A stretch of DNA of 64,000 nt from an uncultured Gammaproteobacteria bacterium (GTDB lineage: Bacteria > Patescibacteriota > Microgenomatia > Levybacterales > JACOYD01). Made by a program: the position numbers and the translations under genes. The notes beneath the pieces are model-generated. The model had not been told where the DNA came from. It did not search any database and saw nothing but the letters and a program-made list of their open reading frames with translations. How positions within the stretch are numbered: the first letter of the stretch is position 1; each line of letters opens with the position of its first letter. Below are positions 1-32,666 of this stretch, piece after piece. The stretch covers positions 5,176 to 69,175 of the forward strand of contig CAYUJR010000002.1 in NCBI GenBank assembly GCA_964445095.1, given 5' to 3'.

Positions 1-681
1 GTGCGGGGGAATTTTAAGGATTTAGGGGAAATTGCACGTTCAAATGGTTTTGATAAGGTGAGCGGCATAATTTTTGATTTGGGAGTTTCCAGTCATCAAT
101 TAGAGACTGAAGAGAGAGGTTTTAGTTTTCAGAAGGATGCGCCGCTTGATATGAGAATGAATTCGTCAGCTGACGAACAAGCGGTTACAGCGGCAGACTT
201 AATTAATGGCTTAACTAGAAAGGAGTTATATGAGCTTTTTACTAAATTGGGTGAGGAGCAGTTTGCTGGGCCCATTTCTGACTCTATTATTAGGGCCCGT
301 CAAGTAAAACCCATTGCGACAACCGGTCAATTAGCAAAAGCGGTAGTAGATGTTTATAAAAAATATCATATGAAAAGAGGAAAAATTAATCCGGCAACAA
401 AAGTTTTTCAAGCTTTACGAATGGCTGTTAACGACGAGCTTAACAATTTAAGACAAGCCTTGCCGCAAGCCTTAGACCTGTTATTGCCCGGCGGCCGCTT
501 GGTGGTAATTAGCTTTCATTCCTTGGAGGATAGAATTGTTAAAAATTTTGCCAAAGAACAGCAGGCATTGGTCTTAGCGCGTATTTTAACAGAGAAACCA
601 GTTACGCCCGATTTTACGGAAATAGAAAGTAACCCCAGAGCTAGAAGTGCCAAGATGAGAGTGCTGGAAAAATTAGCATGA
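1..681 (+). CDS. rsmH: 16S rRNA (cytosine1402-N4)-methyltransferase RsmH/MraW, C-terminal part (5' end lies outside the window)
   Basis: Translation contains GIIFDLGVSSHQLE...ERGFSF...DAPLDMRM, the RsmH signature. First gene of the dcw cluster. Overlaps the next ORF by 4 nt (ATGA). Confidence 0.85.
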   Translation: MRGNFKDLGEIARSNGFDKVSGIIFDLGVSSHQLETEERGFSFQKDAPLDMRMNSSADEQAVTAADLINGLTRKELYELFTKLGEEQFAGPISDSIIRARQVKPIATTGQLAKAVVDVYKKYHMKRGKINPATKVFQALRMAVNDELNNLRQALPQALDLLLPGGRLVVISFHSLEDRIVKNFAKEQQALVLARILTEKPVTPDFTEIESNPRARSAKMRVLEKLA

Positions 682-962
682 ATAATCGTCATATTTTATT
701 ATTAAGCCTGGTTGTAATTTTAGTAATAGCTCTAACTGTGATGCAGGTAATTCTTTCCAATAAGCTGTCAACGGCAGGAAAAGAATTAGCCAAAATTCAA
801 AACGTGATTAATGAGCAGGAGTTAATTGGCGAGGAGTTGAGGATTAAAATAGCCAGCGCCAGCTCACTTACCGCCATTGCCCAAAATGCGGGAAAACTGG
901 GATTTGTCAAAGATAGCTCGCCGCTGGTGGTGGGCGGCAGCGAATTTGTGGCTCAACGATGA
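678..962 (+). CDS. ftsL: FtsL/DivIC-like small bitopic division protein
   Basis: 94 aa with an N-terminal TM helix then a coiled-coil. Sits between rsmH and ftsI as in canonical dcw clusters. 4-nt overlaps on both sides. Confidence 0.55.
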   Translation: MNNRHILLLSLVVILVIALTVMQVILSNKLSTAGKELAKIQNVINEQELIGEELRIKIASASSLTAIAQNAGKLGFVKDSSPLVVGGSEFVAQR

Positions 963-2647
963 TATGGCGAACACAAACCCTGTTTTTCTTTTTCTTATTT
1001 TTATTTTTTCTCGTAATTGCCAGACTCTTTTACTGGCAAATTATCCGAGGGAGTGAGCTTTTCCTGCAGGGTCTTTCCCAATACACCCAAACCACTGTTC
1101 ATTTACCCGAGCGGGGGAAGATCTATACTTCCGACAACTTTCCCTTGGTAGCTAATTCTCCCGGATATCTAGTTTTTGTTCAGGCAAGTCTGGTAAAAGA
1201 CCAGGACAGCAAAAAACAGCTCATCAATAAACTTTCTTATCAGCTTAGCCTAGAGGTGGCTTCTGTAGCTGCTACTTTAAATCAAGATTTGCCCTGGATT
1301 CCTATTAAGCAGCGAGTTGATAGATCAATAAAAGAGCAGATAGAAAGTTTAAAACTAACCGGAGTCGGATTTAACAGGCAGGATTTCCGCTTTTATCCGG
1401 AGGCTTCTCTGGCGGCTCATCTGACAGGGTTTACCGGTAAAGACGAGAGCGGGGCAGATAAGGGCTATTTTGGCCTGGAGGGATATTATGACAGAGAACT
1501 GCGCGGTAGAGTTGGCCGAGTCAAAGAGACCAAAGATGCTCAAGGAAAGCCGATTTTAATTGCCGAGCGGCTGGGAGAGAATAAAATTGACGGGCAAGAA
1601 CTAGTTTTACACCTTGATAGGAGAATTCAATTTATAGCAGAAAATGCCTTAAGAGAAGGCGTAGAGCGCTACGGGGCCAAGGGAGGAACAGTGGCGGTGA
1701 TGGATCCTCAAAGCGGAGGAATTATGGCCTCTGCCTCCTATCCCAATTATGAGCAGGAGAAATACTTTAATTATGGCGAGGAGCAGTTTCGCGATTCTCT
1801 AATTTCGGATACTTATGAGCCGGGTTCAACCTTTAAGGTTTTGACTATGGCGGCGGCGTTTAATGAGAATGCGGTGACGGTGGACACTAAATGCGACTCT
1901 TGTGGCGGTCCGGTGACTATTTTTGATTACACTATTAGAAATTGGAATGATAAGTATTTTCCAGATACTAATATGAGAGATGTGATTATTCATTCCGATA
2001 ATACCGGCATGGTCTTTGTCTCCAAAAAATTGGGACTGGATAAAATGTTTACTTATCTCGAGAAATTTGGTATTGGCAGTTCAACCGGCATTGATTTACA
2101 GGGTGAAGCAAGTAGTAAGCTGCGGCCAAAAGACCAGTGGTATCCGATTGATCTGGCGACAGCCGCTTTTGGTCAGGGAGTGGCGGTTACTCCGATTCAA
2201 ATGCTGACGGCGGTTTCGGCTCTGGCTAACGGCGGTCGCCTGATGGAGCCCCACGTGGTCGCCAAAATTAAAGATAGCGGCGGTAAGGAATTTAATATCA
2301 AGCCAAAAGTGGTGCGAGAAGTAATTTCTCCAAATACCGCTCAACTCATCACGGAGATGATGGTAAACGCGGTAGATAATGGTGAAGCTAAATTTGCCAA
2401 GCCTCGCGGTTATCGCATTGCCGGAAAAACCGGTACCGCCCAGATCCCGATAGCCGGACATTATGATCCCAACCGGACCGTGGCTTCTTTTGTCGGTTTT
2501 GCGCCGGCGGATGATCCTAAATTTGTGATGATTGTGATAATTCGTGAACCAACCGCTTCAGTTTTTGGTTCGGAAACCGCCGCCCCCATTTTCTTCAAAA
2601 TCACCCGAGAATTATTAAGTTACTACAACATCCCCCCGAAGGAGTAG
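959..2647 (+). CDS. ftsI: Peptidoglycan D,D-transpeptidase FtsI (class B PBP)
   Basis: N-terminal poly-Phe TM segment. SxxK (GSTFK), SDN (HSDNTG) and KTG(T) motifs are all present. Position follows ftsL. Confidence 0.9.
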   Translation: MIWRTQTLFFFFLFLFFLVIARLFYWQIIRGSELFLQGLSQYTQTTVHLPERGKIYTSDNFPLVANSPGYLVFVQASLVKDQDSKKQLINKLSYQLSLEVASVAATLNQDLPWIPIKQRVDRSIKEQIESLKLTGVGFNRQDFRFYPEASLAAHLTGFTGKDESGADKGYFGLEGYYDRELRGRVGRVKETKDAQGKPILIAERLGENKIDGQELVLHLDRRIQFIAENALREGVERYGAKGGTVAVMDPQSGGIMASASYPNYEQEKYFNYGEEQFRDSLISDTYEPGSTFKVLTMAAAFNENAVTVDTKCDSCGGPVTIFDYTIRNWNDKYFPDTNMRDVIIHSDNTGMVFVSKKLGLDKMFTYLEKFGIGSSTGIDLQGEASSKLRPKDQWYPIDLATAAFGQGVAVTPIQMLTAVSALANGGRLMEPHVVAKIKDSGGKEFNIKPKVVREVISPNTAQLITEMMVNAVDNGEAKFAKPRGYRIAGKTGTAQIPIAGHYDPNRTVASFVGFAPADDPKFVMIVIIREPTASVFGSETAAPIFFKITRELLSYYNIPPKE

Positions 2648-2649
2648 TT

Positions 2650-3240
2650 TTAGGGTGAGTAAAATAAAGACAATGCTCAATCCTACAGATTATTTAATCT
2701 ATTGAAGATGGATCAAATTTGGGAAAGTCTTCATTTAAATATGCAGAACGAGGATCCCTTTTGGAGAAACCAAAAGTCCTCCCTCTCTCTGGTTGTCGCC
2801 TGACCACAATCTCAACCTCTTCTCCTGCTCTTCTTGCTGCTTCTTCCAATTCTGCCACACCTGCTCTTAATGTTCTTTCTCCTGCTCCAGGGGTACGCTC
2901 ATAGAGAGTAGTAGGTTCTCCTATAAATTTAATTGAGCCATCTTCTCCCCTTTTTGTTCCTATGGGTCTTAATCCCACGACTGCGTTTAAGGCAATATTA
3001 TCGCCTGTGTGTCGCCGCCTGGTTTAGCTTCTTTTCTCATGTAGAAGAATTTAGCAAATAGTAATTCAAAAGTCAAGTGTATGTCTTGTGGCGTTGAGCT
3101 TCAAATGGCCTGTGATGAGTTCTATCGAACCATGCCATGGCTCTGAGTTTATCGAAGGGTTATAGCATTGAGCCTGCCGAAATGCTTGCCCTGAGTCCAT
3201 CGAATGGGGTAAAATATGGGAAGAAAATATGAGTTTATTT
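2650..3240. other. Anomalous GC-/CT-rich non-genic-looking segment between ftsI and lexA (degraded gene or structured RNA; not identifiable)
   Basis: Composition differs sharply from the flanking AT-rich DNA. Overlapping ORFs on both strands (2694-2978 minus; 2719-2904 plus). No SD or promoter context. The minus-strand ORF starts at GTG and is rich in AGA/GGA/GAA codons. Confidence 0.3.
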
Positions 3241-3246
3241 TTCCTC

Positions 3247-3276
3247 TTGACAGACTGACTATTTAGTCAGTATACT
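3247..3276 (+). promoter_or_regulatory. lexA promoter with embedded perfect palindromic operator (putative SOS box)
   Basis: TTGACA at 3247-3252, then 18 bp, then TATACT at 3271-3276. The ATG follows 9 nt later, so the mRNA is near-leaderless. The perfect inverted repeat ACTGACTA-TT-TAGTCAGT (3254-3271) fills the spacer. Confidence 0.6.
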
Positions 3277-3285
3277 GGATGGGTT

Positions 3286-3900
3286 ATGGATAAAATAACT
3301 GCCCGTCAGGCAGAAGTTTTGAAACTGATTTATAAATCGATTTCCGATTCCGGTTACCCCCCGACTTTGGCCGAACTGCGTGAGTCTTTGGATGTTTCTT
3401 CCAATCAGGCAGTTTTGGATATTCTAAAAATTTTAGAAGATAAAGGTTATATACAGAAAGAGGAAGGAACAGCAAGAACCATTAGAATTTTAGATAAAGG
3501 CATTAAAGAATTGGGTTTAAAGCAAGTTGCTCCTGTTGCAGGTATCAGCGCAGCCGGCCCATATATGCAAGCCTATGAAATTAATGAATGGAAAGTTATA
3601 GACGATGTACAAGTAACCCCAAAAGACCGTCTGGTAAGAATTTCCGGGGATTCCATGATTGAGGCAGGCATTAATGATGGAGACATTGTCATAGTTCGTG
3701 AATCTAAAGAATTTAAAAACAGGGATATAGTTTTAGCCAGAAATAATGATGAAACAACAGTTAAAAGGTTTGTGCATGATGACGGTAAGGTTTACTTAAA
3801 ACCGGAAAACCCAAAATATAGAAATATTCCCATATATCCGGAGACTAGATTATTGGGTAAAGTTGTAGGTATACTTGGGAAAAGTAAAATTAATGACTAA
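3286..3900 (+). CDS. lexA: LexA-type transcriptional repressor (S24 peptidase)
   Basis: Canonical LexA winged-HTH N-domain (TARQAEVLKLI...YPPTLAEL...GYI). Ala-Gly cleavage site (AAGP), GDSM serine and VKRF lysine are present. The palindromic operator lies in its own promoter. Confidence 0.9.
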   Translation: MDKITARQAEVLKLIYKSISDSGYPPTLAELRESLDVSSNQAVLDILKILEDKGYIQKEEGTARTIRILDKGIKELGLKQVAPVAGISAAGPYMQAYEINEWKVIDDVQVTPKDRLVRISGDSMIEAGINDGDIVIVRESKEFKNRDIVLARNNDETTVKRFVHDDGKVYLKPENPKYRNIPIYPETRLLGKVVGILGKSKIND

Positions 3901-4717
3901 TGTTATGATACCGCAAATTATAAACAGAACAGGATTAGACCATCAGCCTAACAGAAATAATGCTAAAAAGCTTTTATATCCGGAAGATTTTATAAATAAA
4001 ATTATGTGTGGGGATGCTATCGAAATAATGAAACAAATCCCTAATCAAAAAGTAGACCTAGTTGTTACTTCGCCTCCTTATAATCTCAAAAATTCTACCG
4101 GTAACGGAATGAAAGACGGACGAGGTGGTAAATGGGCAAATGCTGCACTACAAAATGGATACACACATCACGACGATTGTATGCCCCATGATAAATATGT
4201 TAAATGGCAAAAAGAATGTTTGAATGAAATGATGAGAATAATTCCAGAAGATGGCGCAATTTTTTATAATCATAAATGGCGTGTTCAGGATGGCTTATTA
4301 CAAGATCGCCAAGATATCGTGGCTGGATTTCCTGTCAGGCAAATTATTATTTGGAAGAGAAAAGGAGGTCTTAATTTCAATTCCGGTTACTTCTTGCCTA
4401 CTTATGAAGTTATTTACCTTATAGCTAAACCGAAGTTTAAATTAGCGCCAAAAGCAAATGCTTATGGTGATGTTTGGGAATTTACCCAAGAAATGAAAAA
4501 TGAGCATCCCGCTGCTTTCCCTGTCAAATTAATTGATCGTATCATTTCTTCAACCAATGCAAAAATAATTCTTGATCCTTTTATGGGTTCAGGTACAACA
4601 GCTATTTCTGCGATTAATTTTAATAGAAAATATATAGGTATTGATATTTCACCGGAGTATTGTAAGATGGCACAGGAGCGAATTGAGCGCCACAATGCGC
4701 AAATAAAACTCCTGTAA
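3893..4717 (+). CDS. Beta-class N4-cytosine/N6-adenine DNA methyltransferase of a type II R-M system
   Basis: Motif IV TSPPY (VVTSPPYNL) precedes motif I DPFMGSGTT, which is beta-group order. SPPY is typical of N4C MTases. The ORF is open from TTG 3875; the start is placed at ATG 3893 and overlaps the lexA stop. Confidence 0.8.
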   Translation: MTNVMIPQIINRTGLDHQPNRNNAKKLLYPEDFINKIMCGDAIEIMKQIPNQKVDLVVTSPPYNLKNSTGNGMKDGRGGKWANAALQNGYTHHDDCMPHDKYVKWQKECLNEMMRIIPEDGAIFYNHKWRVQDGLLQDRQDIVAGFPVRQIIIWKRKGGLNFNSGYFLPTYEVIYLIAKPKFKLAPKANAYGDVWEFTQEMKNEHPAAFPVKLIDRIISSTNAKIILDPFMGSGTTAISAINFNRKYIGIDISPEYCKMAQERIERHNAQIKLL

Positions 4718-4721
4718 AACT

Positions 4722-5519
4722 ATGGCAAGTAAACCGATTATTTATACAAAACAAACGCTAATTGATAAACTTAAAGAAATTGTGGTTATGGGTTGGATTC
4801 CAAACGCCCGGCGAGGTAATTCTGGGGGTATAGGAAATACATTAGAAGATTTACTTGGTATTAAAGAAAATAATTTACCAATTCCAAACGCCGCTGAATG
4901 GGAGTTAAAAACTCAACGTATTAATTCTTCTTCATTAACGACCCTTTTTCATTCAGAGCCCTCACCTCGAGCTATTCGTTTTGTTCCACAAGTTTTGTTG
5001 CCAAAATATGGATGGGCTCATCAGGAAGATGGCAAGAAATATGCCAAAGGTGAGATGAGTTTTCGGCAAACAATTCATGGTCAATCAAGAAGTGATCGTG
5101 GTTTTATGGTTATTATTGATCGTTCAGAGAAAAAGATTTTAATTTCCTTTGATTCAAAAAGTGTGGCCATAAAGCATAAAGACTGGCTCGAATCAGTGAA
5201 AAAACGTGTTGGATTAAAAGAACTTGACCCCCAACCATATTGGGGGTTTGATGATTTAGAACATAAAGCCGGAACAAAATTACTTAATACCTTCTATGTT
5301 CAAGCTGAAGTGAAAGTTGAACGTAAAAAAGAATATTATAAATATACAAAAATTATGATGCTCCAAAAATTCAGTTTTGAAGGATTTTTGAAAGCATTGG
5401 AAGAAGGAAAAATTCTTGTAGATTTTGATGCTCGTACAGGACATAATCATGGAACAAAGTTTAGGATGAGACAGGATTGTTTACCAATACTTTATGAAAA
5501 AGTAACGGTGATTATTTAA
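4722..5519 (+). CDS. Type II restriction endonuclease partner of the MTase (size and context fit MvaI/BcnI-like enzymes)
   Basis: Starts 5 nt after the MTase stop. At 265 aa it matches the size of monomeric MvaI/BcnI-family REases that pair with N4C MTases. No motif strictly recognised; the call rests on context. Confidence 0.5.
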   Translation: MASKPIIYTKQTLIDKLKEIVVMGWIPNARRGNSGGIGNTLEDLLGIKENNLPIPNAAEWELKTQRINSSSLTTLFHSEPSPRAIRFVPQVLLPKYGWAHQEDGKKYAKGEMSFRQTIHGQSRSDRGFMVIIDRSEKKILISFDSKSVAIKHKDWLESVKKRVGLKELDPQPYWGFDDLEHKAGTKLLNTFYVQAEVKVERKKEYYKYTKIMMLQKFSFEGFLKALEEGKILVDFDARTGHNHGTKFRMRQDCLPILYEKVTVII

Positions 5520-5567
5520 ACATTAATCAGAAAAAGAAATTTTGGAGAATTTAAGAAAGGTAAAGAT

Positions 5568-6230
5568 ATGAATTCAACAACAGAAAAACTCATAGAACGA
5601 GTTAGCCAACTTTTGTCTAAGGGGCAATCTGTCGCTGGGACACGATACAATGATAGTTCTGAACATGTTTTCGCTCCAGACGAAGTAAATAGTACCCCAT
5701 TTCATGCATGGAAGAATAACTCACAAAACTGCGTTTTAATGGTTTGTGGAGAAAACAGTCCTTATTATAAAAACTTTATTGAAGGAGTGAAAATAGCTCG
5801 CCCTAGCGATGTAGATCGTGGTATTGGCATACTCACAGCACTGAAAGAAGATTTGGAGTTAGGTTATTTAACCAAAGTTAGAGATTTGGTAAGCGCTGAA
5901 ATCTTTACAGATTTTATCGAAATGGCTCAGCACCTCTTGGATAATAACTATAAAGACCCTTCCGCTTCCCTGATAGGTGCTGTATTGGAAAATGGCTTGA
6001 GACAAATCGCACAGAAAAATACAGTTGAAGTCAAATCGGGCGATGACATAGGATCACTTAATACAAAGCTCGCAGACAAAGAAGTTTATAGTCGCTTGTT
6101 ACAGAAACAAATTCAGGCCTGGAAGGCAATAAGAGATAGTGCTGATCATGGTAAGTTTGAGGATTACAAAACAGAGGATGTTAAGGCTATGTTAGAAGGT
6201 GTGAAAAGATTTTTAACGGAGAATTTGTAG
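5568..6230 (+). CDS. HEPN-domain protein, Abi-like (DUF4145-like), RNase-type Rx4HG motif
   Basis: The C-terminal helical domain carries ...AWKAIRDSADHGKF..., i.e. R-x4-H-G. It sits immediately downstream of the R-M genes, as stand-alone HEPN/Abi genes often do. Confidence 0.55.
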   Translation: MNSTTEKLIERVSQLLSKGQSVAGTRYNDSSEHVFAPDEVNSTPFHAWKNNSQNCVLMVCGENSPYYKNFIEGVKIARPSDVDRGIGILTALKEDLELGYLTKVRDLVSAEIFTDFIEMAQHLLDNNYKDPSASLIGAVLENGLRQIAQKNTVEVKSGDDIGSLNTKLADKEVYSRLLQKQIQAWKAIRDSADHGKFEDYKTEDVKAMLEGVKRFLTENL

Positions 6231-6232
6231 AT

Positions 6233-6589
6233 ATGCAAAATCAGATACCAATAACAAATAAAATAAAAACCATCAAACTTGAGAAGATGCCAACTCTTAT
6301 TAAAGAGTTTATGGTTGATAGAACTCCTCGCAATAAAAACTTCGGCCAACTCTTAAAAATTTTCAATTCTTGCTACAAATCTTTTTCTCCTGATCCATCT
6401 AACGATTTGCGAATACTGAAGTACGTCGAGGATATGAAGAGTGGGGAATGGAATGATTTGATAATTATAACTTTTCAAAATGGACAGGCTATAGACGGTG
6501 TGCATAGAGGTATTGCATATCTAAAATGCGTAAAAGAAGGAAGTAAGGAGGATACTCTTCCGCAGATTTATTTAAGTAGAGTAAAATAA
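6233..6589 (+). CDS. Hypothetical 118-aa protein whose first 8 codons are duplicated at 6591
   Basis: The ORF starts 3 nt after the HEPN stop. The 24-nt segment holding its start (6231-6254) is repeated exactly at 6589-6612. Confidence 0.5.
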   Translation: MQNQIPITNKIKTIKLEKMPTLIKEFMVDRTPRNKNFGQLLKIFNSCYKSFSPDPSNDLRILKYVEDMKSGEWNDLIIITFQNGQAIDGVHRGIAYLKCVKEGSKEDTLPQIYLSRVK

Positions 6590-6590
6590 T

Positions 6591-6737
6591 ATGCAAAATC
6601 AGATACCAATAAATTGGCAGTTGAAAGCTGTAGAATTAGTAAGTAAATCGCACGAGGCAAGAAAGAAATCAAAAGAGCTTTTGGAAGAAGCGAAAAGAAA
6701 AGTTGAGGAAATGGTTGAAAAAGGAGGTGAGAATTAG
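6591..6737 (+). CDS. 48-aa coiled-coil small ORF (MQNQIPINWQ...EKGGEN) sharing its start with the preceding gene
   Basis: Not in the ORF track because it is under 60 aa. It has the same ribosome context and first 7 residues as 6233-6589. Its 3' end encodes the AAAGGAGGTGA SD of the next gene, and its stop overlaps that gene's GTG start. Confidence 0.4.
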   Translation: MQNQIPINWQLKAVELVSKSHEARKKSKELLEEAKRKVEEMVEKGGEN

Positions 6738-7108
6738 TGAAACTTGATGAATTTATAACGAATGTTTTAATGGATATTGACAATGGATTAGCAGTCGCAA
6801 AAGAAAAAGCTAATAGAAATTATTATGTGTCATCTACAGATAAAGGGGGAGTTAGTTTCGATATTGCCGTAACCACAACTTCTTCAAGTGGTTCAAAAGC
6901 CGAAGGAACAGCAAAAGTAGGCATAATCCAAGTTTTGGGTGCTGGTGTTAATGCCGGGTTAGAAAGTAAGGAAGAAAATAGTCATGTAAGCAGAATACGG
7001 TTTTTTGTTCATGTACCAAGTAGGACAAAAACTGAAATTGAAGAGGATTCTAGAGAAATAGCAGAGTTAAATAGAAGACAAAGAGAAGAATCTAGTTTTG
7101 GAACTTAG
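6737..7108 (+). CDS. Small cytoplasmic protein, trypco2-like (trypsin-co-occurring domain 2-like) pattern
   Basis: GTG start 7 nt after a strong SD. Pattern: an amphipathic helix, then VSFDIAVTTT...KAEGTAKVGIIQVLGAGVNAG...H.SRIRFFVHV, resembling trypco2 conflict-system domains. This is recalled from memory, not aligned. Confidence 0.35.
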   Translation: MKLDEFITNVLMDIDNGLAVAKEKANRNYYVSSTDKGGVSFDIAVTTTSSSGSKAEGTAKVGIIQVLGAGVNAGLESKEENSHVSRIRFFVHVPSRTKTEIEEDSREIAELNRRQREESSFGT

Positions 7109-7306
7109 CTGGATGACCTCCCTCTTTCATTTCTCCTTCGTCCTTTGGGACTATGGAAGGACACAGTAAAATTACGGAAGGGCAGGCACGCCGGTTTGCC
7201 CTGAGCGAGGCCAAAGGAAAGAAATTGCAATTGTGGAGGATAGTGTAGCACAGTAATTTTATGAAACAGATGAAAATTAAATTAGCAATTTTTGAAGGAA
7301 GTGAGT

Positions 7307-7325
7307 CGGTGACAAATTGTCACCG
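7307..7325. repeat. Perfect 19-nt palindrome CGGTGACAA-A-TTGTCACCG in the spacer after the defence-like operon
   Basis: Exact inverted repeat. No U-tract follows it, so it is more likely a protein-binding site than an intrinsic terminator. Confidence 0.6.
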
Positions 7326-7465
7326 TTTGAAAATGTTGGCTGTTTACGAGATAATTATTTACCAAGTAATATAATTAAAAAACTAAAATGAGCAATTATT
7401 ACAACATTTAAATTCCCGAGGTGTTTTTGGTTGCATTGCGGATATATTTCCATAAATAATACTAA

Positions 7466-7891
7466 ATGAATAAAGACAAAAGTTATACATGGAATGCCCC
7501 AGACAAAGAAGTTAGCCAGTTAAGCAGTAAAGAGATTGTAATAATATATATTCTTAAAAAGATTAGTCCCTATCTAACAACTCTAACAAGATTTTTCCCA
7601 TTCTCATTACTCTGGCAGGATCGAAGATTTCATTACAAACACAAAAAGATTGCTGACGCCGATGATCTTATTATTAAAATTGCCGGAGAAAAAGACTTTT
7701 GGTTTAAATTATTTTCTTACGATGAAGATGATCGTTTTTTAAACATTATCGGTAAATTTATACCTTTAAAAAAAGACTCTAGCAAAGATAAATTGTTCCA
7801 GTATTTTAGAAAGAAAATGGAGAATGAAGACTTTTATATAAATGACTTGGAGGATGGGAGAGTTAAAATTTCCTTAATGCAAAAGAAATAG
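7466..7891 (+). CDS. Hypothetical protein (AT-rich orphan)
   Basis: 141-aa ORF with no recognisable motif. Very AT-rich and isolated by a 357-bp spacer. Confidence 0.4.
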   Translation: MNKDKSYTWNAPDKEVSQLSSKEIVIIYILKKISPYLTTLTRFFPFSLLWQDRRFHYKHKKIADADDLIIKIAGEKDFWFKLFSYDEDDRFLNIIGKFIPLKKDSSKDKLFQYFRKKMENEDFYINDLEDGRVKISLMQKK

Positions 7892-8001
7892 ATATGAGAT
7901 TATAATCAAAACAAGCTGGTCCTTCGGTAGACTCAGGATAAAGGGATTTTGGAAATGTTTTAATTTTCGTTATACTTAAATAGTAGAGAGGAGGTGAGGA
8001 A

Positions 8002-8523
8002 ATGAATATTAAGAAATTGTTAATAGGTGGTGCGGCCGGGGCGATCATGTTTGCTGCGGTAGTCGCACCGGCTTTGGCAGCGGGTGGATTTGACCAGTTT
8101 GGCTATAACAGAACTGCCAGAAACTTTGTGGGTACCTGTTTAAGCTGGGGCATGGGTAAATATGGATGGACCCAGGCTCAAGCTCAAGCTTACTGCGGAG
8201 TTTACTCCAATGATAAACTGGTGATGAAATGGAATGCCGAGTGGGACCGGGGTAATGCCGAGGGTTGGGCAAACGGCCCGTATGATGCCTGGATTGATAA
8301 TGAGTGGAATGGCAGAAACAATGGGTCAGGGGAAATCTGGCATTATAAAATAGCCTGGGACAGGGGTTGCGCAGACTCCGGTACTCCTTCGGGAGCGGCT
8401 GTCAAAGGAGGGGCCTATTGTATTTGGGGGCCTTTTGCCATGCTGCAAAGCCAGGGGTCTGGTGCGGATAAAGTGCATTATTGGGATGTGCTGCTGGCGC
8501 CTGCCGGTTACGGAGCATATTAA
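8002..8523 (+). CDS. Secreted Trp/Gly-rich hypothetical protein (Sec signal peptide)
   Basis: Strong SD (GAGAGGAGGTGAGGAA) 6 nt before the ATG. Signal peptide with AxA site (APALAAGG). Higher GC than its neighbours. Three Cys. Confidence 0.6.
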   Translation: MNIKKLLIGGAAGAIMFAAVVAPALAAGGFDQFGYNRTARNFVGTCLSWGMGKYGWTQAQAQAYCGVYSNDKLVMKWNAEWDRGNAEGWANGPYDAWIDNEWNGRNNGSGEIWHYKIAWDRGCADSGTPSGAAVKGGAYCIWGPFAMLQSQGSGADKVHYWDVLLAPAGYGAY

Positions 8524-8572
8524 TATAAGGAGAAATGGAGTTTTGGGGCTTTCTGAGGTATAATAGAGCCTG

Positions 8573-9709
8573 ATGTGGCAGAGCCTCAAAAACATCTATC
8601 ACTTGGCCATGGCGGTGGTGGCTAATTTGTGGTTTGGTTTTCCCTCAAAAAAGCTGACGGTCATTGGCGTGACCGGCACTGACGGTAAGACGACTACTGT
8701 TAACCTCATTTACCATATCTTAAAAACCGCCGGAAAACAGGTTTCGATGATTTCTTCGGTGGGGGCGGTTATTAATAGCAAAAATTATGAGACAGGTTTT
8801 CATGTGACCACTCCCTCTTCCTGGAAACTGCAAAAGTTTATCAAGAAAGCAGAAGGTTATTTAGTTCTCGAAGTTACTTCGCACGCTCTTGACCAGTACC
8901 GTGTTTGGGGCATAGATTTTGCAATTGGGGTACTGACTAATGTTACCAATGAACATCTTGATTACCACAAAACCTGGGAACAATATGTGAAAGTCAAATC
9001 AAAGTTGTTAAAAAACGCCAAGATAGCAATTGTTAATAAAGATGACAACTCCTACGGAGTAATTTCCAATTTCCAATTTCCAATTTCCAATAAATTAATT
9101 ACTTATGGATTAAAAAACTTTTCTTTTAAGACAAAATTGATGGGGGAGTTTAATAAATATAATATTTTGGCGGCGGCGGCGGCGGCAAAGACTTTAGGAA
9201 TAAAAGATCAAGTGATAAAAAAAGCAATAGCCAGTTTCCAATTACCGATTGGCAGGATGGAAGTTGTTTATAACGGCGCGTTTATGGTTATTATTGACTT
9301 TGCTCATACTCCAAACGCCCTAGAGCAAGCTTTATCGACAGTGAAAAAAAATGTTAGTGGTCGGTTAATTCATATTTTTGGTAGTGCTGGAGAAAGAGAT
9401 TTTCAGAAACGGCCGGAAATGGGAAGAGTTTCTAGCAAATACGCAGACATTATTATTTTGACTGCGGAGGATCCACGTTCGGAATCGGTTGATAAGATTA
9501 TCGAAGAGATTGAATCAGGAATTAAAAAGTCAGGAGTTTTGAGGGTTCAAAACAGGCAGGAGGCGATTAATACTGCTATTAAAATGGCCAAAAAAGGAGA
9601 TGTGGTGTTACTTACCGGTAAAGGGCACGAACAGTCGATGAATTATGGTCGGGGGGAGGAGCCGTGGAGTGAACATGAAGCAGTTAAACAAGCACTTAAA
9701 AAAAGTTAA
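8573..9709 (+). CDS. murE: UDP-MurNAc-L-Ala-D-Glu:meso-DAP/L-Lys ligase MurE (short form)
   Basis: GVTGTDGKTTT P-loop and DFAHTPNALEQAL (MurE DNAAHTPDAL-like) motifs. TATAAT at 8559-8564 sits only 8 nt before ATG 8573; the true start could instead be M at 8609. Confidence 0.85.
   Translation: MWQSLKNIYHLAMAVVANLWFGFPSKKLTVIGVTGTDGKTTTVNLIYHILKTAGKQVSMISSVGAVINSKNYETGFHVTTPSSWKLQKFIKKAEGYLVLEVTSHALDQYRVWGIDFAIGVLTNVTNEHLDYHKTWEQYVKVKSKLLKNAKIAIVNKDDNSYGVISNFQFPISNKLITYGLKNFSFKTKLMGEFNKYNILAAAAAAKTLGIKDQVIKKAIASFQLPIGRMEVVYNGAFMVIIDFAHTPNALEQALSTVKKNVSGRLIHIFGSAGERDFQKRPEMGRVSSKYADIIILTAEDPRSESVDKIIEEIESGIKKSGVLRVQNRQEAINTAIKMAKKGDVVLLTGKGHEQSMNYGRGEEPWSEHEAVKQALKKS
9062..9089 (+). repeat. (ATTTCCA)x4 heptanucleotide array, in-frame in murE
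   Basis: Four perfect units. With flanking bases it forms a 30-nt insert encoding ISNFQFPISN. Confidence 0.9.
9169..9186 (+). repeat. (GGC)6 trinucleotide repeat in murE (poly-Ala)
   Basis: GGCGGCGGCGGCGGCGGC encoding AAAAAA. Confidence 0.9.
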
Positions 9710-11099
9710 ACGCATCCATTTTGTCGGGATTAAAGGCGTAGGGGTGGCGCCGTTGGCAATTTACGCCAAACAGGCCGGCGTTATTGTTAGTGGAAGTGAC
9801 ATTGAAGATGAGTTTATTACAGACTTGCCTTTGAAAGAAGCGGGCATATCCTGGACTGTGGGATTTGACTCCAAAGATTTACCTGACAAGTTGGACTTGG
9901 TAATTGCTACCGGTGCTCATGGTGGGATGACTAATTCGCAAGTGGCGGAAGCCAAAAAGCGGGGGATTGCCGTTTGGATGCAGGGCGAGGCAGTGGGTAA
10001 ATTTATGGAGGATTTTTTTGGTATTTCGGTCACCGGTTGCCATGGTAAAACTACCACCGCGGGCATGTTAGCCACGTTACTGGTTAAATCTGGTCTTGAT
10101 CCCTCATATATTGTCGGTTCGGGAACAATCCGGCCCCTCGGAGCGGCCGGACACAAAGGTAGGGGTAGATATTTTATTGCCGAAGCGGACGAGTACGCCA
10201 ATGAACCGACATTTGATAAAACTCCCAAATTTTTATATCAAGACCCCAAAATGATAATTCTCACCAACATTGATTTTGACCATCCGGATTTGTTTAACAG
10301 CATTGATCAAATTAGAGAAAGCATATTAAAATTCTTACAAAAACTGGGTAAAGACGGCGTGGCTATAGTTAATGGCGATGACAGTCAAATTCAAAAAATC
10401 CTTCCCCAGATTGGAGCTAAAGTAATTACTTTTGGCACTACGCCCAAAAATGATTTTTATCTAGCCCGCGTAGGTACCATTCCCGGTAAAACTACCCTTA
10501 ATATTATCAATAAAAATGTCAGTCTGGGTGAGTTCTTGCTTAGTCTGCCGGGAGTTCATAATGCCAAAAATGCCTTGGCGGTGGTGGTGGCGGCTTTGGA
10601 GCTGGGTATTTCTGTAGATAAAATAAAACAATATCTGCCGGTCTTTGCGGGAGCCAAAAGACGGTTTGAGTTAGTCGGTAAGTTAAAAAGCGGCGCCCAA
10701 GTTTACGATGATTACGCTCATCATCCCAAAGAAATTACCGAAACGCTTTTATCTGTCAAGCAATGGTTTCCCAAATCAAGAATAACTGTTATTTTTCAGC
10801 CTCACACTTATTCCAGAACCAAAGCCTTATTTATTGATTTTATCCACGCTTTTTCCCAAGCCGACCAGGTTATTTTTACCAATATTTATCCATCTTTGCG
10901 GGAAGAGCCGGATTTAACAGTTTCCTCTCAAAAACTGGCTGCCTCGACCGGTAAATTTCATCCCAGCGTTAAGTTTTTAGCCCAGCCTCGGGATGTGATA
11001 GAATATATAAACAATCAAGAATGGACGGAGAAAGATTTAATAATGACCATGGGAGCGGGAGACGTGTATAAGATTGCAGAAGCAATCTTGCGCGCATAG
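9675..11099 (+). CDS. murC: UDP-N-acetylmuramate--L-alanine ligase MurC
   Basis: IHFVGIKGVGVAPLA...SGSD N-terminus, GCHGKTTT and DDYAHHP motifs. The ORF is open from 9645; ATG 9675 is chosen and overlaps the murE 3' end. Confidence 0.9.
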   Translation: MKQLNKHLKKVKRIHFVGIKGVGVAPLAIYAKQAGVIVSGSDIEDEFITDLPLKEAGISWTVGFDSKDLPDKLDLVIATGAHGGMTNSQVAEAKKRGIAVWMQGEAVGKFMEDFFGISVTGCHGKTTTAGMLATLLVKSGLDPSYIVGSGTIRPLGAAGHKGRGRYFIAEADEYANEPTFDKTPKFLYQDPKMIILTNIDFDHPDLFNSIDQIRESILKFLQKLGKDGVAIVNGDDSQIQKILPQIGAKVITFGTTPKNDFYLARVGTIPGKTTLNIINKNVSLGEFLLSLPGVHNAKNALAVVVAALELGISVDKIKQYLPVFAGAKRRFELVGKLKSGAQVYDDYAHHPKEITETLLSVKQWFPKSRITVIFQPHTYSRTKALFIDFIHAFSQADQVIFTNIYPSLREEPDLTVSSQKLAASTGKFHPSVKFLAQPRDVIEYINNQEWTEKDLIMTMGAGDVYKIAEAILRA

Positions 11100-11132
11100 C
11101 GCTAAAAATTGCCGATGCAATTTTGTCAAATC

Positions 11133-11153
11133 CTAAATTCTAATTTCTAAATC
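11133..11153 (+). repeat. Three heptamer units CTAAATT-CTAATTT-CTAAATC abutting the murB ATG
   Basis: Occupies the expected SD position. Same ATTTCYA family as the murE array. Confidence 0.8.
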
Positions 11154-12146
11154 ATGAACATTATGGATAAAAAACTACAAGAATTGGAGAAAAATTTAGG
11201 GGCGGGTAGAGTTCGTGTCGGTGAGGTGATGAGCGCACATACTACCTTTAAAATTGGCGGGCCGGCCCAATTTTATTTTGAAGCAAATACCATTGACGAT
11301 TTGGTAAATGCAGTCAAAACAGCCAATAAATTAGATCTACCTTTTTTTGTTTTTGGCGGAGGTTCAAACATTATAGTTTCCGACAATGGCATTAAAGGTC
11401 TGGTGATTAAAAATAACTGCCGAAAATTCACCGTCTCTAAAATGAGCGGAAGCGTAAGGGGTAAAAAAGTGGGAGTTGATAAGGCATTGGTAGCGGCAGA
11501 AAGCGGAGCGCTAATGAATCAATTGGTGCGTTTTACCATCGACCAGGGTTTACAGGGTTTGGAATATCAATTGGGATTGCCGGGAACAGTAGGTGGGGCA
11601 ATATATATGAATTCCAATTTCCCCAAAAAGGGAGCCTACGCGGGAGACTCCCTATATCAGGCTAAGCTCATAACTCGAGAGGGAGAAATAAAAGAAGTTA
11701 GTAATTCTTATTTCCAGTTTGGTTACGATAAGAGCATCTTGCAAGAAACAGGGGAGATAGTTTTATCAGTAGTTTTTCGTTTTAAACCGGCCGATAAAAA
11801 AATATTGTGGGAAAAGGGAATGGAGGCCTTAAATTATCGCAGCCTAACTCAACCTAAGGGAGCATCAGCCGGTTGCACCTTCAGAAATATTTCCGTAGTT
11901 GATGCGGTTAGAATTCCCACCCCGCAGCAAATTACTTCCGCCGGATACTTAGTTGATAAGGCTGGGTTAAAAGGAAAACGAATAGGTGACGCCATGATTT
12001 CTCCGCTTCATGCCAACTTTATTCTGAATTTTGGTCGAGCTCATGCTCAAGATGTGACGTCGCTAGTTAAGCTCGCCAAAGACGAGGTTTATAAAAAATT
12101 CGGCGTAAATTTACAATTGGAGGTTAAAACCGTCGGTTTTAGTTAG
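11154..12146 (+). CDS. murB: UDP-N-acetylenolpyruvoylglucosamine reductase MurB
   Basis: HTTFKIGGPAQFYFEANTIDDL and GGGSNII FAD-binding motifs. Three heptamer units (CTAAATT CTAATTT CTAAATC) abut the ATG. Confidence 0.9.
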   Translation: MNIMDKKLQELEKNLGAGRVRVGEVMSAHTTFKIGGPAQFYFEANTIDDLVNAVKTANKLDLPFFVFGGGSNIIVSDNGIKGLVIKNNCRKFTVSKMSGSVRGKKVGVDKALVAAESGALMNQLVRFTIDQGLQGLEYQLGLPGTVGGAIYMNSNFPKKGAYAGDSLYQAKLITREGEIKEVSNSYFQFGYDKSILQETGEIVLSVVFRFKPADKKILWEKGMEALNYRSLTQPKGASAGCTFRNISVVDAVRIPTPQQITSAGYLVDKAGLKGKRIGDAMISPLHANFILNFGRAHAQDVTSLVKLAKDEVYKKFGVNLQLEVKTVGFS

Positions 12147-12157
12147 ATAAGCTCACT

Positions 12158-13480
12158 ATGAAAAAATACATTGTTAAGGGCGGAGTCCCATTAAGAGGTG
12201 AGGTGAGCGTTTCCGGAGCAAAAAACGTGGCGCTTAAGGCACTGGTGGCGGCCGCTCTAACCAGGGAGGAAGTAGAGATTGATAACGTTCCGCTGATTTC
12301 CGACTTGTTTATTATGATAGACATTATTCGTGAATTGGGAGGCGAGGTCAAGATTTTAGATCATCAGTTAAAAATTAGAGTAGGAGATATTAAAAAGCAT
12401 AAAATCTCGCTTGACAAAGCCAGCGAAATCAGAACTTCTTCAATGTTTCTCGCGCCACTACTGGCCAGAACCGGTCAGGCGATTATTCCCAATCCCGGCG
12501 GTTGCAGAATCGGCGCCCGGCCAATAGACAGGATAGTAGAAGGTTTGAAAAAACTGGGATGCGATATTATCTATGACAGTAATGATGGATACTTTCATGC
12601 CAAAACCAAAGGTTTGGTAGGCGCTCATCATAAATTTGATAAAAATACCCATACCGGAACGGAAACGATGATTTTGGCCGCAGTGCTGGCTCGTGGCCGG
12701 ACGGTGCTGGAGAATGCCGCTCAAGAGCCGGAAATAGATGAGCTGATAATTCTGCTTAACAACATGGGGGGAAAGGTTATTCGAAGCCGCTCTCGCACTA
12801 TTGTAATTGAAGGAGTAGAAAAACTTCATGGAACGAAATTTTCGATCGGCCCGGATAGAAACGAAGTAGTCACCTTTGCCCTGGCTGGATTGGCGACGGG
12901 TGGAGAGGCGACAGTAGTAGGTGCCGAAAAAAAATCAATCAAGGCTTTTTTAGATAAACTTTCCCAAGCTGGAGCAAATTGGCAGGAAGTTGAGAGAGGA
13001 ATACATTTCTCGGGTAAGAATCTGCGGTCTACAGAGGTGACGACTTCTTTTTTTCCGGGTTTTATGACTGATTGGCAGGGACCCTGGGCGGTGTTAATGA
13101 CCAAGGCTCAAGGCATATCAATAATTCACGAAACAGTCTACGAAAATAGATTCTCATATATTGGCGAGTTGTTAAGAATGGGGGCCAAAATTGAATTGTT
13201 TAACCCCAAAGTTAAAAACCCGCAAGAGCTCTATAATTTTAATTGGGCAGATGACAAAGATGAATACTTTCATGCTGCCAAAATTTACGGTCCCACCCCG
13301 CTGCATAATGCCGCTCTGTCAATCTCTGACTTACGGGCCGGAGCGACGTTGGTTTTAGCCGCTTTGGCGGCCTCGGGCGAAAGCGTTATTCATGGCATAG
13401 AGCATATTGACCGCGGATATGAAGATTTTGCGGGAAGATTAAAAAAACTTGGCGCCAATATCAAGAGGTTAGAGGATTAA
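12158..13480 (+). CDS. murA: UDP-N-acetylglucosamine 1-carboxyvinyltransferase MurA
   Basis: KGGVPLRGEVSVSGAKNVALKALVAAAL N-terminus typical of MurA/EPSP-fold enzymes. Length 440 aa. Confidence 0.9.
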   Translation: MKKYIVKGGVPLRGEVSVSGAKNVALKALVAAALTREEVEIDNVPLISDLFIMIDIIRELGGEVKILDHQLKIRVGDIKKHKISLDKASEIRTSSMFLAPLLARTGQAIIPNPGGCRIGARPIDRIVEGLKKLGCDIIYDSNDGYFHAKTKGLVGAHHKFDKNTHTGTETMILAAVLARGRTVLENAAQEPEIDELIILLNNMGGKVIRSRSRTIVIEGVEKLHGTKFSIGPDRNEVVTFALAGLATGGEATVVGAEKKSIKAFLDKLSQAGANWQEVERGIHFSGKNLRSTEVTTSFFPGFMTDWQGPWAVLMTKAQGISIIHETVYENRFSYIGELLRMGAKIELFNPKVKNPQELYNFNWADDKDEYFHAAKIYGPTPLHNAALSISDLRAGATLVLAALAASGESVIHGIEHIDRGYEDFAGRLKKLGANIKRLED

Positions 13481-13481
13481 T

Positions 13482-14708
13482 ATGCAGGCAATTTTACTAG
13501 CAGCTGGCAGTTCCAGTCGTTTTTATCCTTTTAACGGGACGCATAAATCAATGGTTTATCTTTTGGGCAAGCCGATACTAGCTCACGCAATTGATGGACT
13601 AAGAAGTATTGGCATAAAAGAGCTTATTATTGTAGTAAGAGATGATGGAATAGTTAAAGATTATTTTGGCGATGGTAAAAAATTTGGAGTAGAAATTAAT
13701 TATGTTGTCATAAATCAACCCTTGGGAATGGGTGATGCCCTACTTCAAGCTAAAAAACACCTTAAGGGTGATTTTATTTTTTTAGGGGGAAACCATGTTA
13801 ATAGTAACATTTTAGTTAGTAAATTATTGACTAACAGAAAAAATACTGATGCGGTAGTATTAATTAACCAAAGATTAAATACTTGGGAATATGGAGTTGT
13901 TAAGCTGGTAGGGCAGCAGGTTAAGGGAGTGGTGGAGAAGCCCAAGAAAGGTCAAGAACCGTCAAAATTTTGTTTAGTCAGTATCTATTTATTACCTATT
14001 AATTTTTTGGCGGTTTTAGAAAAAACTAAAGTGCATCAGTATAATTTTGAAGAGGCTTTGGATGAGTTTACCAAGATAGCAAAAGTCGCGGCAGTGGAGA
14101 TTAAAGAGGAGATAGCCACCTTAAAATACCCTTGGGATTTATTAAACGTTAAGAACATGCTGCTAAAAAAGATGAAAGACTATCGGGGAAAAAATGTCAA
14201 AATTGCCAAAAGCGCGGAAATTATTGGCGAAGTTTCTATTAGTGATGGTGTAGTAATTATGGAAGGAGTGCGTATTAAAGGTCCTGCTTATTTGGGAAAA
14301 AATGTGACAGTTGGTAATAATGCCTTGTTGCGTGGTGGAGTTGACGTGGAAGAGGGGTCGGTAGTTGGTTCTTATATGGAAGTTAAAAATAGTCTGGTAA
14401 TGAAAAATAGTACTACCCACTCCGGTTTTATTGGAGATTCAGTAGTTGGAGAAGCTTGCAAAATTGGCGCCCAATTTTGCACCGCTAATGTCAGAATTGA
14501 CAGAAAAACTATTCATGATAGTGGTCGTAAATTCTTAGGCGTAATTATGGGAAATAATGTTCATATCGGTATTAAATCATCCACCATGCCGGGAGTTATT
14601 ATTGGTAATAATGCTACCATTGGCCCCTCTACCACAGTTTTGCAAAACGTGTCTGATGATTCCCGTTACTACACCAAATTTGAAAAAATAGTGGAGGAGA
14701 AAAATTGA
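13482..14708 (+). CDS. GlmU-like bifunctional sugar-1-phosphate nucleotidyltransferase / left-handed beta-helix acyltransferase (archaeal-type)
   Basis: N-terminus LLAAGSSSRFYPF...K (NTP-transferase G-loop). C-terminal hexapeptide repeats. Lies between murA and glmS. Confidence 0.7.
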   Translation: MQAILLAAGSSSRFYPFNGTHKSMVYLLGKPILAHAIDGLRSIGIKELIIVVRDDGIVKDYFGDGKKFGVEINYVVINQPLGMGDALLQAKKHLKGDFIFLGGNHVNSNILVSKLLTNRKNTDAVVLINQRLNTWEYGVVKLVGQQVKGVVEKPKKGQEPSKFCLVSIYLLPINFLAVLEKTKVHQYNFEEALDEFTKIAKVAAVEIKEEIATLKYPWDLLNVKNMLLKKMKDYRGKNVKIAKSAEIIGEVSISDGVVIMEGVRIKGPAYLGKNVTVGNNALLRGGVDVEEGSVVGSYMEVKNSLVMKNSTTHSGFIGDSVVGEACKIGAQFCTANVRIDRKTIHDSGRKFLGVIMGNNVHIGIKSSTMPGVIIGNNATIGPSTTVLQNVSDDSRYYTKFEKIVEEKN

Positions 14709-31880: not shown

Positions 31881-31912
31881 AAGGTCGGACCTTATGTCAA
31901 GGTCCGACCTTA
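31881..31912. repeat. REP-like hairpin repeat, copy 1 (13-bp stem, 5-nt loop)
   Basis: AAGGTCGGACCTT-ATGTC-AAGGTCCGACCTT followed by A. Identical to the copy at 32635-32666. Confidence 0.8.
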
Positions 31913-31941: not shown

Positions 31942-32619
31942 TCACAATTCATCTTCCAGAATTAATTCGCCAAGTAGCTCTGTTGATTCTTGACTATAGT
32001 CTTCAACAAAGCTCTGATAAGATAGAACATCTTTTAAGCCTTTTAGTTGGGCATTACGGAAATAGCCAAGAATTTCCTGCGGTTTAATCCAGCTTGCTTC
32101 TTTCTTACCTAAATAATAGTGGTAACTTGAAAAATCTATAAAATCGATTGATGGACTAGAGATATTAATTGGATTAAGGTGGATGTATCGTGAAAGGTGA
32201 AGAAGATAAGATTCGGTTTCAATAAGCGCGGCTTTATATTTATTTTGAAAAAGAGAACCCACGCGTTGATATTTCTTATTGAAGTACATAGCGTAGCTAG
32301 TTAATACACGCCTCGTGAGTTTTATAATCCCATCTATAGTATGCTGTTTTATTTGTAAATGAATATGATTTGGCATAAGAGAAAACGCAAGAAGGTCTAC
32401 CTCGGATGATAAGTTTAATCTAATGAATCTTCTAAGACGCATATGAAGATCTGCTTGTTGTTTGATTTCTTCAACAGGAGAAAGATACAGCTTTAAATAA
32501 TAGAGGAATGTTGCGCAATCTTGCTTATCTATGAAGATTTGCCGTTTTTCTACGCCACGATTATAGATGTGATAATATCCATTCTCAACATATGTCTTAA
32601 CAGTATTTTTAGCAGGCAT
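31942..32619 (-). CDS. IS200/IS605-family Y1 (HUH) transposase, RAYT-like
   Basis: HUH motif (MPNHIHLQIK) and C-terminal catalytic-Tyr helix RYIHLNPINI (Y1_Tnp yixxNP pattern). Flanked by identical hairpins. Confidence 0.8.
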   Translation of the reverse strand: MPAKNTVKTYVENGYYHIYNRGVEKRQIFIDKQDCATFLYYLKLYLSPVEEIKQQADLHMRLRRFIRLNLSSEVDLLAFSLMPNHIHLQIKQHTIDGIIKLTRRVLTSYAMYFNKKYQRVGSLFQNKYKAALIETESYLLHLSRYIHLNPINISSPSIDFIDFSSYHYYLGKKEASWIKPQEILGYFRNAQLKGLKDVLSYQSFVEDYSQESTELLGELILEDEL

Positions 32620-32634
32620 ATCTTTATATTAATT

Positions 32635-32666
32635 AAGGTCGGACCTTATGTCAAGGTCCGACCTTA
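32635..32666. repeat. REP-like hairpin repeat, copy 2
   Basis: Exact 32-nt copy of 31881-31912 in the same orientation. Sits 16 nt upstream of the transposase start codon. Confidence 0.8.

Follow-up and report, generated by a model that had tools for sequence, protein, structure and literature searches.

The exact 24-nt direct repeat described here, found in a 64,000-nt stretch of DNA analysed as a whole (the window), probably represents the 5' end of hsdS, a type I specificity gene, doubled when the body of a small foreign gene, ORF118, was joined in frame behind hsdS codon 7. The start of the new gene appears to be an insertion scar reused for translation, and the feature as a whole reads as a rearrangement scar and pseudogene relic in a defence island, a kind of feature that is already known. 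Its value would lie in being a clean and datable case of defence-island remodelling, in which an incoming gene hijacked the start of the resident hsdS, and the resident gene kept a duplicate start and then decayed to a stub of 48 codons.

The 24-mer ATATGCAAAATCAGATACCAATAA occurs on the forward strand at 6231-6254 and 6589-6612, without a mismatch between the copies and at an offset of 358 nt, with 334 nt lying between them. Each copy consists of AT followed by the ATG and the first seven codons (MQNQIPI) of an ORF. Copy 1 begins directly behind the stop of a HEPN-like gene, so that its ATG lies 2 nt past that stop, and opens ORF118 (6233-6589, 118 aa); copy 2 opens ORF48 (6591-6737, 48 aa) after the ORF118 stop as TAA-T-ATG. 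An initial annotation had described this duplicated translation start and held it to be beyond chance, and on both points we agree: no match was obtained in 100 dinucleotide-preserving shuffles, none is expected by chance, and the 64-kb window contains no third copy at up to 3 mismatches. Apart from this pair, the window has just one dispersed exact direct repeat of 18 nt or longer, a REP-like 32-mer pair 25 kb off. A separate Logan assembly contig (L001, run SRR4343435) is 100% identical to positions 4814-7834, and hence the layout is not an artefact of MAG assembly or binning. The exact ORF48 and ORF118 proteins were found on one other assembled contig only, in the same arrangement. Viral contigs scanned with a 16-mer gave at least 120 single, unrelated chance matches, none of which can be extended or adjoins homologs of ORF118, ORF48 or the HEPN-like gene.

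The repeat is located in a low-GC (30-38%) string of tightly spaced genes on the forward strand, inserted between rsmH-ftsL-ftsI (1-2647) and the Mur ligases (8573-11099). The string starts with a LexA-like repressor (3286-3900; LexA_DNA_bind and Peptidase_S24), followed by an N4/N6 DNA methyltransferase (3875-4717) and a MvaI/BcnI-family endonuclease (4722-5519), the HEPN-like gene of 220 aa (5568-6230), ORF118, ORF48, and finally ORF123 (6737-7108), which has no family match. ORF123 begins at a GTG that overlaps the stop of ORF48 (TAGTG), and a GGAGGTG in the 3' end of ORF48 lies 6 nt upstream of this GTG. Since the strongest promoter-like site of the string is found at 3247-3276 (11/12) and no terminator-like site was found on the forward strand within 3286-7108, the genes from 3286 to 7108 are consistent with a single operon. 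The low-GC island as a whole spans 3250-8000 within the division and cell-wall cluster between ftsI and the Mur ligases, and comprises the LexA-like repressor, the MvaI/BcnI R-M genes, the HEPN-like gene, ORF118, the hsdS stub, ORF123 and ORF141. It is followed at 8002-8523 by a high-GC (~51%) gene for a 173-aa protein with a hydrophobic, by eye signal-like N-terminus.

The 220-aa gene upstream of the repeat belongs to the HEPN superfamily by way of its homologs. R189 and H194, which form an Rx4H motif within the Rx4-6H signature, do not vary among 20 homologs with identities as low as 35%, and 14 of these 20 match the HEPN Pfam family PF05168 at E<=0.01 (best 2.6e-5); the window's own protein scores 19.8 bits against a cut-off of 22. 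A metagenome scan with this protein returned 32 loci, none of which encodes ORF118. In these relatives the gene regularly accompanies R-M operons of types I, III and IIG as a passenger. It is located upstream of type III mod and res in L064, L068 and L069, upstream of res and a methyltransferase in L080, between hsdM and hsdS and followed by GmrSD in L083, and after a type IIG enzyme in L073. This resembles the HEPN-domain genes embedded in R-M operons, a setting that the superfamily analysis of Anantharaman et al. from 2013 is said to describe. Across the scan loci the junction to the next gene reads TAA-AT-ATG almost throughout, and the HEPN-gene stop with its AT-ATG forms a slot where differing downstream genes are joined; the window has TAG-AT-ATG at this place. 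Unlike HEPN-MNT toxin-antitoxin pairs (PMC4621449), the 220-aa gene has no MNT partner, and its 3' junction is reused by unrelated downstream genes.

The origin of the repeated start is indicated by L079, a locus in which the 220-aa gene (78% aa identity to the window's) is followed by TAA-AT-ATGCAAAATCAGATTTTAAATAACTGGCAAAAAATAAAATTAGGTGATG and ORF118 is absent. The next gene, read only in its N-terminal part up to the contig end, opens with ATGCAAAATCAGAT...AACTGGCAA (translated MQNQILNNWQKIKLGDV... / MQNQILNNWQKIKLGDVTEYINRGV...), and its homologs, which have PF01420, bear the name restriction endonuclease subunit S. Given this layout and the S-subunit homologs, we take ATGCAAAATCAGAT to be the native start of an hsdS behind the HEPN-like gene, at the same syntenic site as the window's junction; the repeated sequence would be the native 5' end of a type I specificity gene. 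Among the homologs of the L079 HsdS fragment, which are HsdS target-recognition domains (TRDs) mostly from contig fragments, none has an MQNQI start. The two copies in the window differ in what follows. Copy 2, an hsdS start of the original type, remains homologous to the L079 hsdS beyond the repeat, through AAT TGG CAG (NWQ); in copy 1, the captured start, this homology ends at 24 nt and ORF118 sequence follows. The general guess of the initial annotation that the start is tied to a specificity locus thus held, the start belonging to hsdS.

HsdS proteins have conserved N-terminal, central and C-terminal regions that flank the TRDs (Loenen et al. review, PMC3874165), and ORF48 carries parts of both ends. 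Its search gave 37 matches of HsdS type, two of them named S subunit, whose common part, ...IPILPxxxQQKIAxLVxKSHEARKKSKELLEEAKRKVEEMIEKG, is the near-invariant C-terminal end of HsdS; KSHEARKKSKELLEEAKRKVEE is nearly invariant in 32 aligned matches, some of them named S subunit. Only residues 14-48 align to HsdS C-termini, in a region that begins LKAVELVSKSHEARKK... and contains the conserved C-terminal helix KSHEARKKSKELLEEAKRKVEEM / ELVSKSHEARKKSKELLEEAKRKVEEMVEKG, and a weak PADLOC match covers the final 45 positions of a type I specificity model. ORF48 has no TRD and no PF01420 match, and Methylase_S matches are absent from ORF48 and the rest of the window. Based on the NWQ homology, the C-helix matches and the weak PADLOC match, ORF48 appears to be a decayed hsdS remnant in which about ten N-terminal codons (MQNQIPINWQ) are fused to the C-terminal helix, the TRD having been deleted. 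It thereby resembles other decayed or orphan hsdS fragments, such as the similar short C-terminal fragments on long contigs (e.g., P0060 in L099). Unlike in those, the N-terminal codons are present twice, and an unrelated gene has taken over one copy as its own start. This reading accounts for two puzzling small ORFs, and it should warn annotators that "hypothetical proteins" of the ORF48 kind may be hsdS relics.

Between the window and the relative L002, the C-helix segment has changed synonymously in 10 codons and non-synonymously in 3 (dN/dS 0.034), and therefore the frame was under selection for most of the divergence. Late and possibly independent TRD deletions, or a peptide that is still translated, would fit this value. 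In L002 (4131-4260) the MQNQ start and the stub are in different frames, and the C-helix frame KIVELVRKSHEARKK... is open just past an A6 run; the peptide might perhaps still be made there by an alternative start or slippage. A programmed frameshift on this A-run was considered and dropped: the −1 frame stops after four more codons, a +1 shift would work but is purely speculative, and L005 has a stop codon. The 55-kb contig L099 contains at 2200-6300 a fragmented type I system (HSDR_N_2, 95 aa; N6_Mtase, 56 aa; Methylase_S, 266 aa), whose Methylase_S ORF overlaps the 51-aa C-helix ORF P0060, and represents another decayed R-M locus with the same HsdS C-helix.

ORF118 is a gene of a different kind. 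Its product shows the ParB/sulfiredoxin (Srx) fold, with D88, G89, H91, R92 and G93 invariant in the family (motif DG[VI]HRG), and has no match at E<=1 in Pfam, NCBIfam or PADLOC and no meaningful match in PHROG. The dN/dS of 0.14-0.23 argues for a real, selected gene. The family is rare: a search of 5.8 billion proteins yielded 10 homologs, 1.84 billion representatives contained 40 clusters at E<=1e-3, and about 50 further copies occur in Solirubrobacterales MAGs and one in Saccharimonadales; scanning viral contigs with the ORF118 profile gave no relatives. In its fold and R-M neighbourhoods it resembles the ParB/sulfiredoxin-type defence domains (DUF262/GmrSD N-domain, BrxU, SspE, DndB-like), and it has a DGxHRG motif; it differs from them in being a stand-alone domain of 110-120 aa without a Pfam, NCBIfam or PADLOC match. 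The surroundings of the homologs are often defence-related. Homologs are located next to EcoRII-C/Dcm/Vsr in L002 and to a split mod, DUF3800 and res in L003. One adjoins a DUF4145 protein (L006, 1375-2094) and another a SIR2_2-like protein (L100, 932-1933), neighbours that support an association of the family with defence-accessory functions, for which this mini-protein family and the HEPN-like R-M passenger gene are candidates. The Solirubrobacterales MAGs (L010-L063) have one homolog each, at 30-42% identity, in high-GC chromosomal contexts without obvious R-M neighbours; a quick ORF listing gave no recognisable conserved neighbourhood at these loci, and the members there may have a housekeeping role. 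Homology within the family begins at about codon 9, behind the seven codons that ORF118 shares with hsdS. Members outside the clade of the window, L002 and L005 start with MKKISSHKF, MKVLNAND or MEKEINSEQ and lack MQNQ, so it was this clade that acquired the hsdS start and not the reverse. The first seven codons of ORF118 would accordingly be borrowed from hsdS.

The same double start is found in two relatives. L002, a Saccharibacteria MAG, has an ORF118 homolog of 74% aa identity; it becomes homologous to the window only from the ATG region onward, and the upstream gene differs. L005 has a homolog of 65% identity with the same 220-aa gene upstream. In both, [AG]TATGCAAAATCAGAT heads the ORF118 homolog and recurs immediately past its stop. 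Decay of the downstream remnant has gone further than in the window: the junction is 14 nt shorter than the window's and breaks the frame, and the downstream copy of L005 additionally has a TAG in codon 4. Since the arrangement is shared at dS values of 0.8-1.8 among the three, the double start is old and inherited. In L003, the ORF118 homolog has a start of its own, MKKISSHKF, and behind it GT-ATGCAAAATCAAAT opens a different protein of 113 aa; this locus thus has the downstream copy only. The initial annotation had proposed a gene-sized cassette inserted at a conserved start, which agrees in part with the ORF118 body between the start copies, the empty state in L079 and the downstream-copy-only state in L003.

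The two copies in the relatives share about 16 nt, compared with 24 of 24 in the window. An A at +15 and a T at +20 occur in both window copies and in no other copy; such shared derived bases call for gene conversion or a more recent re-duplication and hint at some remaining activity of the repeat. The identity of the copies is most simply read as the outcome of either process, albeit on suggestive evidence; selection at the nucleotide level on the initiation region is an alternative, given the near-constancy of codons 2-4 across 8 copies. A recent allele exchange at the repeat was rejected, there being no sharp break of identity at the repeat between the window and L005.

We propose the following history. 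The ancestral layout would have been a HEPN-like gene, its stop, AT and hsdS starting with MQNQI, as in L079. One illegitimate crossover would have joined hsdS codon 7/8 to the 5' end of ORF118, and one homologous crossover within the shared hsdS start would have completed the exchange, giving HEPN - MQNQIPI::ORF118 - MQNQI-hsdS. Because the second crossover would be homologous within the shared start, hsdS kept an intact start, and under this model the duplication corresponds exactly to the hsdS 5' end. Both parental layouts exist: the recipient type, HEPN - hsdS(MQNQI) with an ATG-CAA-AAT-CAG-AT... start, in L079, and the donor type, ORF118 with its native start followed by an MQNQI gene, in L003. 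After the insertion hsdS would still have been intact, its TRD being lost later to leave the stub of 48 codons, and translation of ORF118 would have become coupled to the HEPN gene stop. The repeat would not be part of an active switch and would allow at most a rare deletion of ORF118. The order of insertion and excision is read from about six loci, and L079 could be a post-excision state.

Other explanations of the repeat are much less probable than this capture of the hsdS start. The one that fares best among them, though still improbable, regards the sequence as a functional nucleic-acid element: ATATGCAAAATCAGAT would be kept at both starts as a binding or cleavage site, for the HEPN RNase or the ParB-like ORF118, or as an optimised initiation region that co-regulates both ORFs. 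Codons 2-4 (CAA AAT CAG) are indeed nearly free of synonymous change across 8 copies from 5 loci, at a dS of 0.8 to >1.8 elsewhere, and the position of both copies 1-2 nt after a stop codon suggests translational coupling; the sample is small, however, and the copies are not independent. Against an element speak the L005 downstream copy with its TAG and the broken frame of the downstream ORF in L002 and L005, which make the second copy appear dispensable, as well as the quite different downstream starts used by 29 of the 32 HEPN-gene relatives. RNA structure around the copies is not significant (z -1.39 and +0.04 against shuffles), and neither a tRNA nor an Rfam family was matched in 1-14000, so a structured RNA or riboswitch was rejected. 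A complementarity of 8-14 nt between the start region and 6513-6526 falls into conserved GIAYLK codons without a significant fold and was taken as chance.

Doubtful to a slightly higher degree is an active direct-repeat switch of tvr type, in which ORF118 would be deleted and re-inserted recurrently, as an ON/OFF or cassette exchange with a heterogeneous population; a deletion product would have lost 358 bp and carry the junction 6230|6613, GAATTTGTAGATATGCAAAATCAGATACCAATAAATTGGCAG. The empty arrangement of L079 and the derived bases common to both window copies, which imply exchange between them, would suit such a switch, and a length of 24 nt, near the minimum for homologous recombination, also counts for it. 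In addition, the repeat lies in the conserved 5' end of hsdS, and direct repeats in hsdS guide excision at tvr (PMC6265443). On the other side, the ORFs between 2650 and 8570 (LexA-like, MTase, REase, HEPN-like, ORF118, ORF48, ORF123, ORF141 and ORF173) gave no recombinase match, and the ORF listing and family searches made no recombinase gene evident there. According to tblastn with HsdM, HsdS, Mod and Res queries, the 64-kb window contains no hsdM, hsdR or second hsdS, the sole match being the C-helix remnant at 6585-6734. TRD cassettes are absent, and by Pfam the neighbours of the repeat are the type II MvaI/BcnI pair rather than type I genes. The arrangement is fixed in three genomes across dS 0.8-1.8, the one other contig with the exact ORF48 and ORF118 proteins does not deviate from it, the copies in the relatives have drifted to 16 shared nt, and at none of the loci is another gene found in place of ORF118 between the repeats.

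The same observations give no support to the suggestion of the initial annotation that N-terminally identical modules are being swapped. The comparison with relatives proposed there returned one of its two outcomes, a variant lacking the insert (L079), and at no locus the other, a different cassette between the repeats; ORF48, moreover, has no TRD. The annotation would have called the repeat a fixed relic if related genomes and reads all showed the identical arrangement, and to judge from these loci the repeat seems closer to that state.

The closest analogies in mechanism are the phase-variable hsdS loci. In the pneumococcal tvr locus (SpnIV), hsdS is shuffled by recombinase-mediated excision and reintegration guided by direct repeats, and toxin-antitoxin and recombinase genes are embedded (PMC6265443). 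The window is similar in that direct repeats of hsdS origin enclose sequence other than hsd genes and in that an R-M locus includes a toxin-like gene (HEPN); it differs in lacking a tvrR-like recombinase, hsdM/hsdR and alternative TRD sequences, in having a 24-nt repeat at the very 5' end, and in the stability of the arrangement over a long divergence. Inverting hsdS loci (SpnIII/ivr, epigenetic invertons) have inverted repeats, several TRD-bearing hsdS copies and usually an invertase (PMC4948785, PMC7672463, PMC7394358). Here, too, the repeats lie inside hsdS conserved regions at a specificity locus, yet they are direct, and there is a single remnant without a TRD. What characterises ivr and tvr loci, namely functional hsdM and hsdR with an expressed, TRD-bearing hsdS, at least two TRD cassettes and an adjacent recombinase, is absent from the window.

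Breakpoints close to gene starts were also seen elsewhere, with similar start capture behind the same HEPN-like gene. Up to and including the first 15 nt (ATGGCTAAAAATGAT, MAKND) of the gene that follows the HEPN gene, L073 and L075 share about 96% identity, and they are unrelated thereafter; beyond this breakpoint (L073, 5660-5674; L075, about 1243-1257) L073 encodes a 309-aa protein without a family and L075 a mod methyltransferase. In L084 (from 1457) an unrelated hydrophobic protein is headed by a fused hsdS N-terminus, MKNAWSTKKLD, and in L082 (from 1391) hsdS is truncated after 12 codons. The onset of homology between L002 and the window belongs to the same pattern. Start-proximal breakpoints may recur because survivors keep a working initiation or coupling signal or, as an unlikely alternative, because recombination is biased to these sites. 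A wider reading, which we regard as a long shot, makes the 3' junction of the HEPN gene (stop-AT-ATG and the first 5-12 codons) a recurrent plug-in slot of Patescibacteria-type defence islands. Unrelated promoterless genes would repeatedly be joined there and inherit the start and initiation region, through a recombination that favours starts and is possibly still active via the 24-mer; the genes cited for it are ORF118, the 309-aa gene of L073, the membrane protein of L084 and the mod/res/hsdS operons. If start-proximal breakpoints reflect mechanism and not just selection, they would bear on the exchange of promoterless genes in small, streamlined genomes.

Least probable is a target-site duplication, with ORF118 as the cargo of a small transposable or integron-like cassette on whose insertion 24 nt were duplicated: a direct repeat does flank a single-gene segment, and ORF118 homologs do occur in varied contexts (EcoRII/Dcm/Vsr, type III-like R-M, SIR2-like, DUF4145), but usual target duplications are far shorter than 24 nt, the left repeat is coding sequence fused in frame, ORF118 homologs in L003, L009, L098 and L100 lack flanking repeats, and the 334 nt between the copies hold only ORF118, with neither TIRs nor an attC-like hairpin inside 6255-6588 and no transposase or integrase. 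Likewise, no notable inverted repeat or significant fold was found near 6495-6630 and no integrase nearby, and a transposon or integron cassette was rejected; the sole transposase-like gene to appear was a RAYT-like ORF at a distance of 25 kb from the repeat.

This ORF accompanies the second dispersed repeat of the window. The 32-nt sequence AAGGTCGGACCTTATGTCAAGGTCCGACCTTA occurs at 31881-31912 and 32635-32666, each copy having two hairpin-like palindromes, and the pair flanks an ORF of 225 aa on the reverse strand (31942-32619) whose motifs YHIYNRG ... MPNHIHLQI resemble by eye those of REP-associated tyrosine transposases (RAYT/IS200-like). Finally, the heptamer AATTTCC is repeated four times in tandem at 9058-9099, within a Mur-ligase-like ORF (8573-9709) in which it encodes ...NFQFPISN..., and a second exact repeat with an offset of 7 is located near 50970-50995; both tracts are possibly prone to slippage.
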